A stretch of 64,000 nucleotides of DNA from Escherichia coli. Lineage in GTDB: Bacteria; Pseudomonadota; Gammaproteobacteria; Enterobacterales; Enterobacteriaceae. Below the pieces are notes generated by a model that saw nothing but the letters and a program-made list of their open reading frames with translations, did no database searches and was not told where the DNA came from. Of this stretch, positions 8,041 through 10,372 are shown piece after piece (within the stretch, counting starts at the first letter, position 1; the number at the start of each line of letters is the position of its first letter). The stretch lies in NCBI RefSeq assembly GCF_044324785.1, contig NZ_CP172127.1; one strand, written 5' to 3'. Made by a program: the position numbers and the translations under genes.

Positions 8041-8200
8041 AACGAATGCCACCGCCGCCTGGGCGGGAATCCGCAGAACGCCCACCGCAGCGTGAGCCGT
8101 CAGCAGCAGTGTCGCTGTCGTGCTGACAACGACCGGCAAAGGCCTGAGTTGAAGCTACCAGAGACAACAAAACGAACAGTGCAGCAAATGCTTTTTTCAT
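8039..8200 (-). CDS. candidate secreted mini-protein (53 aa precursor, about 31 aa mature, 2 Cys)
   Basis: Internal ATG at 8200 gives MKKAFAALFVLLSLVASTQAFA, a textbook Sec signal with an AFA cleavage site. TTGACG-16-TATAGA lies upstream at about 8210-8240. The gene sits after the terminator at 8273-8293. Confidence 0.4.
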   Translation of the reverse strand: MKKAFAALFVLLSLVASTQAFAGRCQHDSDTAADGSRCGGRSADSRPGGGGIR

Positions 8201-8272
8201 TGTGACATTTCCATCTATAAGCCACCTCAATGTGGCGTCAATGAGTGTAGCACTGACTTTTGTTTCGTCCAC

Positions 8273-8293
8273 AAAAAAGCCCGCAGCGCGGGC
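8273..8293 (-). terminator. rho-independent terminator of the 8921-8293 cassette
   Basis: Minus strand reads GCCCGC-GCT-GCGGGC followed by TTTTTT. Confidence 0.75.
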
Positions 8294-8733
8294 TATTCTT
8301 CTTCATCATTAAAAAGCGGATTGTTGTTTCCATCTGATGAAAGGAAAGGTATGTGTTCTCTTGAAAATCCAACAATGACAATTTCATTATCATTTTTTGC
8401 ATAATGAATGCATTCATTAGAATGCCTTCCGCCAGGGTTGAAATTTAAGTTAATGGTATAATTCTTAAATGTGTTTGGATACCATGTTGGCCCACAATGA
8501 TAATGCCAATAATTCTCTTGCTCATAATTGTCTGAGCCGGGAATTTTATCATGGTTATCATCAACCCACGAGGGCTTGTTTTTTCCAACAAGCGCCCTTC
8601 CATTGGCAACATCCTCTAAAAAACTTTGTATGATTTTTATTTCATCATCAGTAAGGAAAGGTCCGTCTACAGCGAAAGGGGTGTTGCTTTCCCCATGTAG
8701 AAAACTATTAGATATTCTAATGTTAAACTTCAA
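8293..8733 (-). CDS. hypothetical cytoplasmic protein, 146 aa, AT-rich; possibly YafO-like toxin fold (weak)
   Basis: No in-frame ATG is available downstream of the track start, which overlaps the 8754-8921 gene in another frame. TTG at 8733 is preceded by AGGAG with a 6 nt spacer. Motifs YWHYHCGP and SNECIHY..IVIVGFSREH resemble the HxHL and SDxxLVY...aH layout I recall for YafO. Acidic tail NDEEE. Confidence 0.5.
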   Translation of the reverse strand: MKFNIRISNSFLHGESNTPFAVDGPFLTDDEIKIIQSFLEDVANGRALVGKNKPSWVDDNHDKIPGSDNYEQENYWHYHCGPTWYPNTFKNYTINLNFNPGGRHSNECIHYAKNDNEIVIVGFSREHIPFLSSDGNNNPLFNDEEE

Positions 8734-8753
8734 GGAAAACTCCTGATGTGCTT

Positions 8754-8921
8754 CTATTTGGAGCGAAATGCCGCCTTGAAGTCGCTGAAAGATGTTCCTG
8801 TCTGGTAAACCATATCCTTGTCGCGCTCTTTGCTTGCGCGGCCAAGCATAACTTTTCCAATGACATCCCAGCATTGCTTGGCTTGTTCATTGTGCTGAGT
8901 ACGATTTTTCAACGCTGTCAT
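8754..8921 (-). CDS. small basic protein, 55 aa, first gene of the cassette (candidate regulator or antitoxin)
   Basis: Perfect SD AAGGAGG lies 6 nt upstream of ATG 8921. TAG stop lies 20 nt before the downstream TTG start. Missed by the ORF track (under 60 aa). Confidence 0.5.
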   Translation of the reverse strand: MTALKNRTQHNEQAKQCWDVIGKVMLGRASKERDKDMVYQTGTSFSDFKAAFRSK

Positions 8922-8933
8922 ATCGCGCCTCCT

Positions 8934-8948
8934 TTACCTTTAAGGTAA
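8934..8948 (-). promoter_or_regulatory. inverted repeat O1 (TTACC-TTTAA-GGTAA) abutting a -10-like hexamer
   Basis: Minus strand reads TTGCAG-17nt-TACTAT, then TACTATTACCTTAAAGGTAA, followed directly by the SD of the 55-aa gene. Confidence 0.4.
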
Positions 8949-8996
8949 TAGTACGCTATTCACCCACAGTCTGCAATCTGTACAGAATTATTTAAA

Positions 8997-9012
8997 GGCA
9001 CATCCCTGTGCC
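8997..9012 (-). terminator. hairpin downstream of the antirepressor gene
   Basis: Minus strand reads GGCACA-GGGA-TGTGCC followed by TTTAAATAATT (weak U tract). Confidence 0.4.
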
Positions 9013-9020
9013 ACCGCCCG

Positions 9021-9713
9021 TCAGAAGAACCCTGCTTTGTCGTTGATGTACTCCGCGTGCGTCTGGATATCACGCAGGCATTTGCTCACACCGACGATGT
9101 AGCAGAACATGGTGGTCAGCTCCGCCGCCGCGCCCGATACGTCGTGCCCGTCTTCCTGTAACTGGTTCAGCAGATTCATCAGCAGTGAGTTCTCCGTCAG
9201 GCCGAGAACACCAGACGGCGAATGAATCAGGCTGCGGTAGCCGGGCTTCAGCGGGGCGCTGTAGGTTTTGTTCTCTATCTTCATCGCCTGCATTACTGCT
9301 GACGCCGTGGCGTTGGCTACCTGGTCGGCAACCATCTTTATGCGTTCTTCCTGCGGGAGCGAGTTTTTAATGTAACTTCCGGTGCGACGGATCTGAGGAA
9401 GAACCTCACCTGTAACCCATTCAAGAAATCTGAATGCTCTCGTTCCCTCTGTCATTGCCTCTTTGCAACGCAGAATAAGGATGTAGAGACCTGATTCTGA
9501 AACGATGGATAGTTCTTGTATTCCACCAGGGGTCTGTATTGAATACAGCCCCTTTTTGTTCCAGCCTTTTTTATCAAGTTTTCTCGCTTGTGTAACATCA
9601 ATATTCAAAGCATTGCACACATCTTTGGTGACAAACCAAGGTTCTCCGTCAATCATGAACATACGGATCTGGCAGGATGACTCAAAGGAAAAGATGGAAG
9701 GTTTGGTATTCAT
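9021..9713 (-). CDS. Bro-N domain antirepressor (Ant-like), 230 aa
   Basis: ATG at 9713 has AGGTGA upstream. The N-terminus FSFESSCQIRMFMIDGEPWFVTKDVCNALNI is the classic Bro-N signature. The C-terminal ~65 aa are paralogous to the product of 10024-10281. Confidence 0.8.
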   Translation of the reverse strand: MNTKPSIFSFESSCQIRMFMIDGEPWFVTKDVCNALNIDVTQARKLDKKGWNKKGLYSIQTPGGIQELSIVSESGLYILILRCKEAMTEGTRAFRFLEWVTGEVLPQIRRTGSYIKNSLPQEERIKMVADQVANATASAVMQAMKIENKTYSAPLKPGYRSLIHSPSGVLGLTENSLLMNLLNQLQEDGHDVSGAAAELTTMFCYIVGVSKCLRDIQTHAEYINDKAGFF

Positions 9714-9739: not shown

Positions 9740-9790
9740 TCACCACCGCTGAGACCAATCAGATGGTGGTGAACTGTGCAGAGTTGGTCT
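9740..9790 (-). promoter_or_regulatory. ant leader hairpin (hexaloop GACCAA/UUGGUC) plus adjacent complementary box; potential pseudoknot
   Basis: 8 bp stem 9740-9747/9765-9772 and 4 bp stem 9749-9752/9759-9762 close a hexaloop at 9753-9758. TTGGTCT at 9784-9790 is complementary to the loop plus one closing nucleotide. Confidence 0.4.
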
Positions 9791-9861
9791 TACCGGCTAC
9801 AAAGGAACCCGGCGCACCTTTCGGTGCCCCCACACAGCCCACCATAGAATAGGTGCGCTTT

Positions 9862-9893
9862 ACACATAAAAAAACCGCTTATGCGGCATATGT
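9862..9893 (-). terminator. terminator-like element inside the spacer
   Basis: Minus strand reads CACATATGCCGCATAAGCGGTTTTTTTATGTG. A short GCCGC/GCGGT stem with a U7 run is flanked by CACATA/TATGTG. Confidence 0.35.
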
Positions 9894-9900
9894 GCCTCTG

Positions 9901-9954
9901 TAGTAATCCGGGAGACCAATCCCGGCACTGGATTTTGCCAGTGCCTGATTACTA
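9901..9954 (-). ncRNA. candidate structured RNA: 54 nt three-way junction
   Basis: Closing stem TAGTAATC/GATTACTA (8 bp). Arm 1: 5 bp CGGGA/TCCCG with hexaloop GACCAA. Arm 2: 8 bp GGCACTGG/CCAGTGCC. All pairs are Watson-Crick. Strand assigned from context only. Confidence 0.35.
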
Positions 9955-9964
9955 TGGCACAAGA

Positions 9965-10005
9965 GGAGTGCTTATATTTACCGCAAAGGTAAATATAAGC
10001 ACTCC
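9965..10005. repeat. perfect 18 bp inverted repeat (5 nt spacer) whose centre is O3 (TTACC-GCAAA-GGTAA)
   Basis: GGAGTGCTTATATTTACC-GCAAA-GGTAAATATAAGCACTCC, lying 19 nt downstream of the stop of the 85-aa gene. Confidence 0.8.
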
Positions 10006-10023: not shown

Positions 10024-10281
10024 TTATCTGGTTTGTTTTCGTAATTGTTCGGCACAATAGTCTAGATGTGTTTGCAGATCCTGCATAGACATCTGTGAGC
10101 TGGTGACGTAGTTAATCAGTGCAGTCAGTTCGGCAAGTGGGCCATCGACATTAAATCCATCCTTATCGAGATCCCGGAGTAATTTCATCAAGTGCGATCC
10201 CTCCACCAGTGACCTGACGCCTCCCGGCGTGTGAATCCTTTCGGTAAATCCGTCTTCCAGTGGATAGTGATACTGCTGCAT
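10024..10281 (-). CDS. small protein (85 aa) paralogous to the Ant C-terminal domain; candidate SOS-induced antirepressor
   Basis: ATG at 10281 has GGAG upstream (the track start at 10299 is TTG). About 45 percent identity by eye over about 62 aa with the Ant C-terminus (IHxPxGV..L.E.S.LM.LL..L..DG..V.G..AELT...Y......D.QTH..Y). Confidence 0.65.
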   Translation of the reverse strand: MQQYHYPLEDGFTERIHTPGGVRSLVEGSHLMKLLRDLDKDGFNVDGPLAELTALINYVTSSQMSMQDLQTHLDYCAEQLRKQTR

Positions 10282-10300
10282 CTTATCTTCTCCATGCAAT

Positions 10301-10357: not shown

Positions 10358-10372
10358 TCACCTGAAAGGTAA
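10358..10372 (-). promoter_or_regulatory. inverted repeat O2 (minus strand TTACC-TTTCA-GGTGA) abutting a -10-like hexamer
   Basis: Minus strand reads TAGATA-17nt-GATATT, with GATATTACCTTTCAGGTGA. On the plus strand the same site lies in the spacer of TTGCAA-16-TATCTT, which faces the tailspike gene. Confidence 0.35.

Follow-up and report, generated by a model that had tools for sequence, protein, structure and literature searches.

Positions 8293–8921 of the 64,000-nucleotide (nt) stretch of Escherichia coli DNA analysed here (contig NZ_CP172127.1 of assembly GCF_044324785.1; 'the window' below means this whole stretch) hold a compact cassette of two minus-strand genes, coding for proteins of 55 and 146 amino acids (aa), in an epsilon15-like (Uetakevirus) prophage that the window carries. 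We favour, with a probability of about 0.6, reading this cassette as a type II toxin–antitoxin-like module that forms exchangeable cargo in a variable slot of the prophage, with an unclassified candidate toxin of the RelE/ParE fold and with control exercised at the level of the phage. A first-pass annotation, made from the letters of the DNA, had guessed at a toxin–antitoxin module here, and that guess gains support from the predicted RelE/ParE fold of the 146-aa protein, from a conserved upstream partner that diverges along with it, and from a YafO-family pair that occupies the same slot in a sister phage.

The AlphaFold2 model of the 146-aa protein, built on a 28-sequence alignment, has a predicted local distance difference test score (pLDDT) of 92.3 and a predicted template modelling score (pTM) of 0.86, and its best structural matches are the RNases RelE, YafQ, YoeB and HigB. 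Foldseek searches of the PDB bring the same proteins to the top, at E values of 0.2 or more and hence without significance, and searches of the BFVD viral structures returned nothing significant for the model. At the level of prediction, the RelE/ParE (BECR) fold of the 146-aa protein is established. To the core shared with the compact toxins the model adds a helix (residues 68–73) before the strand that carries WHYHC, a loop of ~28 residues (80–107) after it, and a disordered acidic tail. With the loop inserted between strands, and with these other additions, the protein is ~55 residues longer than the ribosome-dependent mRNA interferases YafQ, RelE, YoeB and HigB, none of which it matches by sequence or by profile. 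The acidic tail and the histidine-containing blocks YWHYHCGP and ECIHY..IVIVGFSREH, which the first-pass annotation had picked out, read as it described them.

The family to which this protein belongs is broad. A word-indexed search recovered 34 relatives from Enterobacterales and Pasteurellaceae, none of them with a Pfam domain, and when 1.84 billion representatives were searched exhaustively with a profile (E ≤ 1e-3), 118 clusters at the 50% identity level emerged, the family ranging over Enterobacterales, Pasteurellaceae, Aeromonas and Neisseriaceae. Across a 98-sequence alignment H77, H79 and H127 are invariant, with conservation of 90% or more at F11, G50, N52, K53, Y78 and Y111. According to the secondary structure of the model, H77 and H79 lie in the central strand, H127 lies just past the last strand, and K53 and Y111 are in or near strands of the sheet. 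In YafQ, acid–base catalysis involves H50, H63, D67 and H87 (PMC4652777), and the modelled placement of the invariant histidines suggests, by analogy, a similar RNase site in the 146-aa protein. On this analogy the candidate toxin would inhibit translation by cutting mRNA, as an endonuclease of the RelE/YafQ/YafO type, probably histidine-dependent, in which H77/H79 and H127 may act as general base and acid, in the manner of YafQ H50/H63 and H87, with K53 possibly stabilizing the transition state.

Neither cassette protein matched Pfam, NCBIfam or a defence-system model of PADLOC (PADLOC-DB v2) at E ≤ 10; PHROGs places the 146-aa protein in phrog_5954 and the 55-aa protein in phrog_8607, both families of unknown function. 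The first-pass annotation had likewise recognized neither protein as a described family, and the PADLOC search that it had proposed gave no assignment. Pfam searches with the 98 family members gave chance matches only and none to the 13 BECR toxin families, and a profile search of PDB sequences with the family found no toxin, returning spurious matches to a cytochrome c555 trimer and delta crystallin. One candidate locus (L022) was discarded as a false positive, being a ribosomal protein L13 that contains GKNKPSW.

The small upstream partner described in the first-pass annotation proved to be conserved and to co-diverge with the 146-aa protein. Each of 18 true loci in other genomes has, upstream of the toxin-like gene and on the same strand, a partner gene that overlaps it or is separated from it by at most 20 nt. 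These partners are 55–102 aa long in Enterobacterales and 160–211 aa long in Pasteurellaceae and Kingella/Neisseria, and their last ~40 residues align across Serratia, Erwinia, Klebsiella, Proteus, Pasteurellaceae and Kingella/Neisseria (examples of the aligned module are QCWDVIGKVMLGRA..MVYQTGTSFSDFKAAF in E. coli, KYKQQSDEVVLSRV..GYTYKSSHSFDDFKKAV in Haemophilus and EFWDGLYNGIRGRS..DFIVDPSMSVDDILKAI in Klebsiella); the E. coli 55-aa protein consists of little beyond this module. Close homologues of the 55-aa protein were found in Enterobacteriaceae only, and in Enterobacter sp. NFR05 the locus tags place homologues of both genes side by side. When 1168 open reading frames (ORFs) were searched with a profile of the enterobacterial partners, the next-best matches were the Haemophilus-type partners (Haemophilus, Necropsobacter; E 0.007–0.07), and one iteration added the partners of Actinobacillus seminis (1e-9), Canicola (0.04), Proteus (0.11) and Klebsiella (0.26), all above any non-partner ORF. 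Overall, the partners of most lineages score between 1e-20 and 0.26, ahead of every non-partner ORF, and some of the Pasteurellaceae partners and those of Kingella/Neisseria score weakly or not at all.

The two proteins diverge together, the similarity matrices of the toxin-like protein and the partner module being correlated over 13 pairs at r = 0.90, a value that none of 5000 Mantel permutations reached. Because a partner is present at all 18 loci, because its module is homologous in most lineages, and because of this correlation, the pair is, on sequence evidence, an ancestral and co-inherited unit. The cassette thus shows the bicistronic operon with a conserved cognate partner that characterizes type II systems, and we hypothesize that the 55-aa protein, as the candidate antitoxin, would neutralize the 146-aa protein by binding it through the conserved C-terminal module. 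The same result bears on base composition. The low GC content of the 146-aa gene, to which the first-pass annotation had drawn attention, is borne out (35.6%, and 30.6% at third codon positions, as against 47.0% and 53.6% for the 55-aa gene and 50.8% for the window); its conclusion that the two genes were separately acquired does not hold, because the genes are inherited together and the toxin-like gene lies under the local GC content in eight of eight other loci, so that the difference in E. coli is no sign of separate acquisition.

The module moves from one genomic setting to another, occurring in immI regions of the P22/epsilon15-like kind, in Klebsiella in lambdoid nin regions, and between the tape-measure and baseplate V genes of Pasteurellaceae prophages. 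In Kingella/Neisseria, the two genes sit within the NADH dehydrogenase operon, between nuoK and nuoL (L019, 3366–4519; L020, 1006–2102). The long partners of Pasteurellaceae and Kingella (loci L005–L017 and L019) begin with a signal-peptide-like N-terminus, made up of a basic N-region, a hydrophobic core and an AxA-like site. At two of the 18 loci, a draft genome of a Canicola haemoglobinophilus isolate (L009, 3986–4426) and a Neisseria metagenome-assembled genome (L020, 1596–2102), the toxin-like gene is frameshifted and its partner intact. These frameshifts may reflect decay of the toxin gene or assembly errors; a frameshifted gene beside an intact partner is consistent with its being a toxin gene.

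The elements of the cassette, from upstream to downstream on the minus strand, are as follows.

8976-8948, minus strand: promoter-like element read from the sequence, TTGCAG (8976-8971), a 17-nt spacer and TACTAT (8953-8948)
8934-8948, no strand: palindrome TTACCTTAAAGGTAA, of the form TTACC-N5-GGTAA, which abuts the -10 hexamer and overlaps the Shine–Dalgarno site
8934-8928, minus strand: Shine–Dalgarno sequence AAGGAGG of the 55-aa gene, 6 nt upstream of the start
8754-8921, minus strand: 55-aa partner gene, candidate antitoxin, with an ATG start (PGAP WP_000125783.1; phrog_8607); residues ~16-55 form the conserved module
8753-8734, minus strand: intergenic gap of 20 nt between the 55-aa and 146-aa genes
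8744-8740, minus strand: Shine–Dalgarno sequence AGGAG of the 146-aa gene, 6 nt ahead of the TTG
8293-8733, minus strand: 146-aa gene, candidate toxin, with a TTG start at 8733 and a predicted RelE/ParE fold (WP_000671198.1; phrog_5954)
8445-8603, minus strand: published 'orf10' of phage phiv142-3 (QGF19616.1), a +1-frame ORF within the 146-aa gene
8294-8272, minus strand: intrinsic terminator, a strong hairpin AGCCCGCGCTGCGGGCT and the T-run TTTTTG, overlapping the stop codon
8317-8929, minus strand: exchangeable cargo, where the window and phage TL-2011b differ; it takes in the two ORFs and leaves out promoter, palindrome and terminator

The two-gene minus-strand unit of the first-pass annotation, with its ORFs, 20-nt gap, TTG start, both Shine–Dalgarno sequences, terminator and palindrome, is present in full at these positions. 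NCBI PGAP calls exactly these two coding sequences in an identical E. coli chromosome, both as 'hypothetical', and the N-terminal MKF/MKI of the 146-aa protein is kept in homologues that start with ATG or GTG at the same position. The program-made ORF list gives a 193-aa ORF with an ATG start, which arises artefactually from its 'first start after a stop' rule. The promoter-like element matches the consensus at seven of 12 positions, which is weak, and a promoter scanner made no call; it is supported by the recurrence, at 10020-9978, of the same layout of -35 hexamer, 17-nt spacer, -10 hexamer and abutting palindrome.

Comparison with phage TL-2011b (NC_019445) defines the slot in which the cassette sits. 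Between the same flanks, TL-2011b carries the YafO-family toxin gene gp44 (PF13957) and a 59-aa upstream gene, gp45 (L001, 3121–3848). BLAST homology between the window and TL-2011b stops at 8316 and restarts at 8930, with a common terminator directly after the stop codons and a common promoter and palindrome directly before the first Shine–Dalgarno sequence. Because homology breaks at these points and the signals in the flanks are common to both, we take the cassette proper to be 8317–8929 and the regulatory elements to be owned by the phage. A third two-gene allele, coding for a 108-aa protein and a 167-aa DUF2335 membrane protein (L031, 1595–2396), occurs in phages EC.W1-9 and ZX5 with the same terminator and a different upstream region, such that no fewer than three unrelated two-gene alleles, with one common terminator, occupy the slot between a 53-aa membrane-anchored gene and a BRO-N gene.

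The first-pass annotation had also noted, from the order and spacing of the histidine blocks, a weak resemblance to the YafO family. YafO (PF13957) is one of 13 Pfam families of BECR-fold toxins, and its genes are ordered antitoxin–toxin (PMC11980606). PF13957, to which that annotation had pointed, had no match at E ≤ 10 in the 146-aa protein and none among 97 relatives, whereas the positive controls scored 26.3 bits (TL-2011b gp44) and 134.6 bits (E. coli YafO). The hhalign probability against the gp44 family was 0.1% with a shallow alignment of the 146-aa protein and 2.2% (E 0.022) with the 98-sequence alignment, the single aligned stretch setting WHYH on RHTH and TSxxVIHY on TSDSFLVY; against E. 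coli YafO alone the 98-sequence alignment gave nothing, and BLASTP of the cassette proteins against gp44 and gp45 was not significant. A gp44-type model of low confidence (pLDDT 65.6) has the same order of secondary-structure elements, the HxH strand being preceded by a short helix and followed by a long loop. Upstream, where a YafN-type (Phd/YefM) antitoxin would be looked for, the 55-aa partner matches nothing in Pfam or NCBIfam. The suggestion was thus right as to the superfamily, and its motif register is the one that hhalign picks; membership of the YafO family is not demonstrated, given the silence of PF13957 and the hhalign results. A distant link to YafO within the superfamily is possible.

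In both superfamily and antitoxin–toxin gene order, the cassette is like YafO–YafN and gp44/gp45, and it has the identical slot, promoter, palindrome and terminator as the latter; it differs from them in profile (as above) and in its partner, gp45 having no match to the partner profile. Relative to the partners of YafQ, RelE, YoeB and HigB, the 55-aa protein lacks a Phd/YefM, ribbon–helix–helix or helix–turn–helix domain. Similar in plan is a prophage-borne system with a RelE/ParE-fold toxin, a very small antitoxin without a DNA-binding domain and a separate regulator protein, to which the cassette has no sequence similarity; the nearest structures to the 146-aa protein are RNases and not ParE, and no dedicated regulator gene is seen within the cassette.

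Regulation of the cassette appears to belong to the phage. TACC-N5-GGTA occurs four times in the window, as against 0.36 expected. Three copies of the palindrome, of the general form TTACC-N5-GGT(A/G)A, lie upstream of minus-strand units, namely the cassette, the c4/isrK–antirepressor operon and a 91-aa gene, and each abuts a -10-like hexamer; related palindromes occur in TL-2011b and, as a pair, upstream of the Serratia cassette. The features concerned are listed here.

8934-8948 and 9978-9992: exact copies of the palindrome
10358-10372: copy with one mismatch
9762-9849, minus strand: C4 antisense RNA (Rfam, 78.6 bits, above the gathering score)
9868-9944, minus strand: isrK (Rfam, 74.7 bits, above the gathering score)
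9905-9957, minus strand: c4 a1/b1 target element (Rfam, 38.4 bits, below the gathering score of 46.7)

At 10020-9978, TTGTAA, a 17-nt spacer and TATATT are followed by the palindrome in the same layout as at the cassette, and the copy at 9978-9992 precedes isrK and the C4 antisense RNA, upstream of the BRO-N antirepressor-like gene. Because C4 and isrK lie upstream of the BRO-N gene, we read this as a P1/P7-type immI control region in an epsilon15-like prophage. Judging from its positions, the palindrome is probably an operator through which one phage regulator governs both the antirepressor operon and the cargo slot. The first-pass annotation had seen in it an operator of the autoregulatory type; since the same promoter and palindrome serve different cargo in TL-2011b and recur at the c4/isrK–antirepressor promoter, and since the 55-aa protein has no recognizable DNA-binding domain, that reading is not supported. 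Transcription of the cassette would instead be set by a phage regulator binding TTACC-N5-GGTAA, jointly with the c4/isrK–antirepressor operon, and the module may serve in abortive infection or exclusion, or else in stabilizing or modulating the lysogen. The paper describing phage ZX5 contains no operator data.

A published phenotype can be traced to this cassette. In phiv142-3, a prophage of avian-pathogenic E. coli (MN187550) that is 99.8% identical to positions 8200–9050 of the window, the transcript of 'orf10' was up 2^4.12-fold in chicken serum; its deletion reduced growth in chicken serum, where survival was about 60%, lowered expression of the kps genes ~2-fold, cut the loads in the blood and hearts of chickens, left growth in LB unaffected, and was complemented by a fragment of which no more is said than 'coding sequence and putative promoter' (Li et al. 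2020, PMC7724020). MN187550 annotates orf10, a 52-aa product in the +1 frame, as the sole coding sequence inside the 146-aa gene. The published 60-nt lambda-Red arms map without mismatch to 8604–8663 and 8385–8444, from which it follows that the deletion, 8445–8603, removed codons ~44–97 of the 146-aa gene, including GKNKPSW and WHYHCG, and left the 55-aa gene intact. In each homologue examined the +1 frame of orf10 is broken by five to 13 stops, and the 146-aa frame is open throughout the set. As the deletion strikes the core of the 146-aa gene and the orf10 frame is not conserved, the serum phenotype should be re-assigned to the 146-aa gene. That the toxin-like gene could be deleted alone with the cell remaining viable is a prediction of the toxin–antitoxin reading.

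Several observations nonetheless weigh against that reading. A loss of fitness in serum is not expected from the removal of a toxin, and it keeps alive the alternative that the 146-aa protein is a non-toxic RelE-fold factor of host fitness or regulation in the lysogen, acting for example on capsule genes and serum resistance, with the 55-aa protein as a cofactor or chaperone. The deletion of codons ~44–97, with its restoration by complementation, the fall in kps expression and the serum induction of the transcript all speak for such a factor (PMC7724020), but the effects are modest, were attributed to the wrong reading frame and rest on an undefined complementing fragment, and the invariant His, Lys and Tyr residues on a RelE fold, the obligate co-evolving partner and the YafO-family alternative allele fit a toxin–antitoxin module better. 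We consider this alternative unlikely; as a weakly active mRNA interferase could give the same changes in expression, it and the toxin reading are not exclusive. Three further points concern the 146-aa protein itself: no sequence profile (Pfam, NCBIfam, PADLOC or PDB sequences) connects its relatives with a named family of toxins; where the invariant histidines sit on the sheet is read from modelled secondary structure and not from coordinates; and the RelE/ParE fold is also that of the ParE gyrase poisons. A ParE-like toxin, paired with the 55-aa protein as antitoxin and acting as a poison of DNA gyrase or on some target other than RNA, is nevertheless quite improbable, as the best structural matches are the RelE, YafQ, YoeB and HigB RNases and the set of three invariant histidines with Lys and Tyr resembles RNase active sites such as that of YafQ. 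ParE toxins are not known to have such sets of catalytic residues.

The partner raises difficulties of its own for a toxin–antitoxin module. The 55-aa protein has no recognizable DNA-binding domain in Pfam or NCBIfam, unlike classical antitoxins, and the palindrome is shared with other phage units, so that an antitoxin with a DNA-binding domain and an operator of its own, the other mark of type II systems, was not found; the partner profile gives no match to the partners of Aeromonas and Enterobacter adelaidei; and the signal-peptide-like N-termini of the Pasteurellaceae and Kingella partners are hard to square with a cytoplasmic antitoxin. These N-termini, with their basic N-regions, hydrophobic cores (Kyte–Doolittle 12-residue means of 1.6–2.4) and AxA-like sites in partners of 160–211 aa from Haemophilus, Actinobacillus, Canicola, Rodentibacter and Kingella, would suit an envelope-linked or exported two-protein system in which the partner module acts outside the cytoplasm, other than a classical cytoplasmic toxin–antitoxin pair. 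We hold this to be very improbable, given that a hydrophobic segment is missing from the partners in E. coli, Serratia, Erwinia and Proteus and no toxin-like homologue has a signal peptide. That the ORFs are there by chance, as a non-functional AT-rich remnant, or that the real gene is the 52-aa orf10, would agree with the annotation of MN187550, where orf10 alone appears in this stretch, and with the published assignment of the phenotype (PMC7724020); it is effectively refuted by the breadth of a family in which the 146-aa frame is open and conserved (~118 clusters), by the pLDDT of 92 and the PGAP call, and by the stops in the +1 frame of every homologue examined.

If the toxin–antitoxin reading is correct, a sequence family missed by Pfam, NCBIfam and PADLOC would join the RelE/ParE toxin superfamily, together with a new and very small antitoxin-type module. 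The slot itself is a cargo hotspot of epsilon15-like prophages in which toxin–antitoxin-like pairs are swapped under one phage-controlled promoter and operator. The literature is corrected in that the serum-resistance and colonization phenotype assigned to phiv142-3 orf10 belongs to the deletion of a RelE-fold gene, and a virulence-related trait thereby becomes tied to the gene for a candidate mRNA interferase. More speculatively, and with distinctly low odds, the cassette may exemplify a new toxin–antitoxin architecture based on a portable neutralizing module of ~40 residues, which stands alone in E. coli phages and in Pasteurellaceae and Neisseriaceae is joined to a helical protein that is exported or anchored in the membrane; there it could make the activity of the candidate RelE-fold RNase depend on envelope state or the Sec pathway (for example on phage DNA injection or secretion stress), and in E. 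coli the same RNase would be placed under the phage immunity circuit, reshaping host expression and aiding survival in serum.

The cassette (8293–8960) was found in 76 of 5426 complete E. coli genomes, in every case on the chromosome, and in all 60 of the listed carriers both genes are annotated intact. A literature search on the accessions WP_000125783.1 and WP_000671198.1 found no paper. Within the species, phage HEMP4 is 97.2% identical to positions 8200–9050, and the comparison of substitutions with it rests on two differences and is uninformative. Strain 2013C-3033 (L034, 301–929) differs from the window at 12 positions of 8293–8921, numbers too small for interpretation, with six nonsynonymous and three synonymous changes in the 146-aa gene and three changes in the intergenic/Shine–Dalgarno stretch; the 55-aa protein is identical in the two (same WP accession).

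On one side the cassette is flanked by genes for an 824-aa protein of unknown function and small membrane proteins, and on the other by the BRO-N antirepressor-like gene and a tailspike gene. The C-terminal ~60 codons of the BRO-N gene (8998–9185) are 97% identical to the 3' end of the TL-2011b Ant gene (L001, 2601–2788), which lies in the opposite orientation, and the 91-aa ORF at 10024–10299 resembles a free-standing paralogue of the BRO-N C-terminal domain. This sharing of C-terminal sequence between BRO-N and Ant suggests shuffling of domains among the antirepressors.

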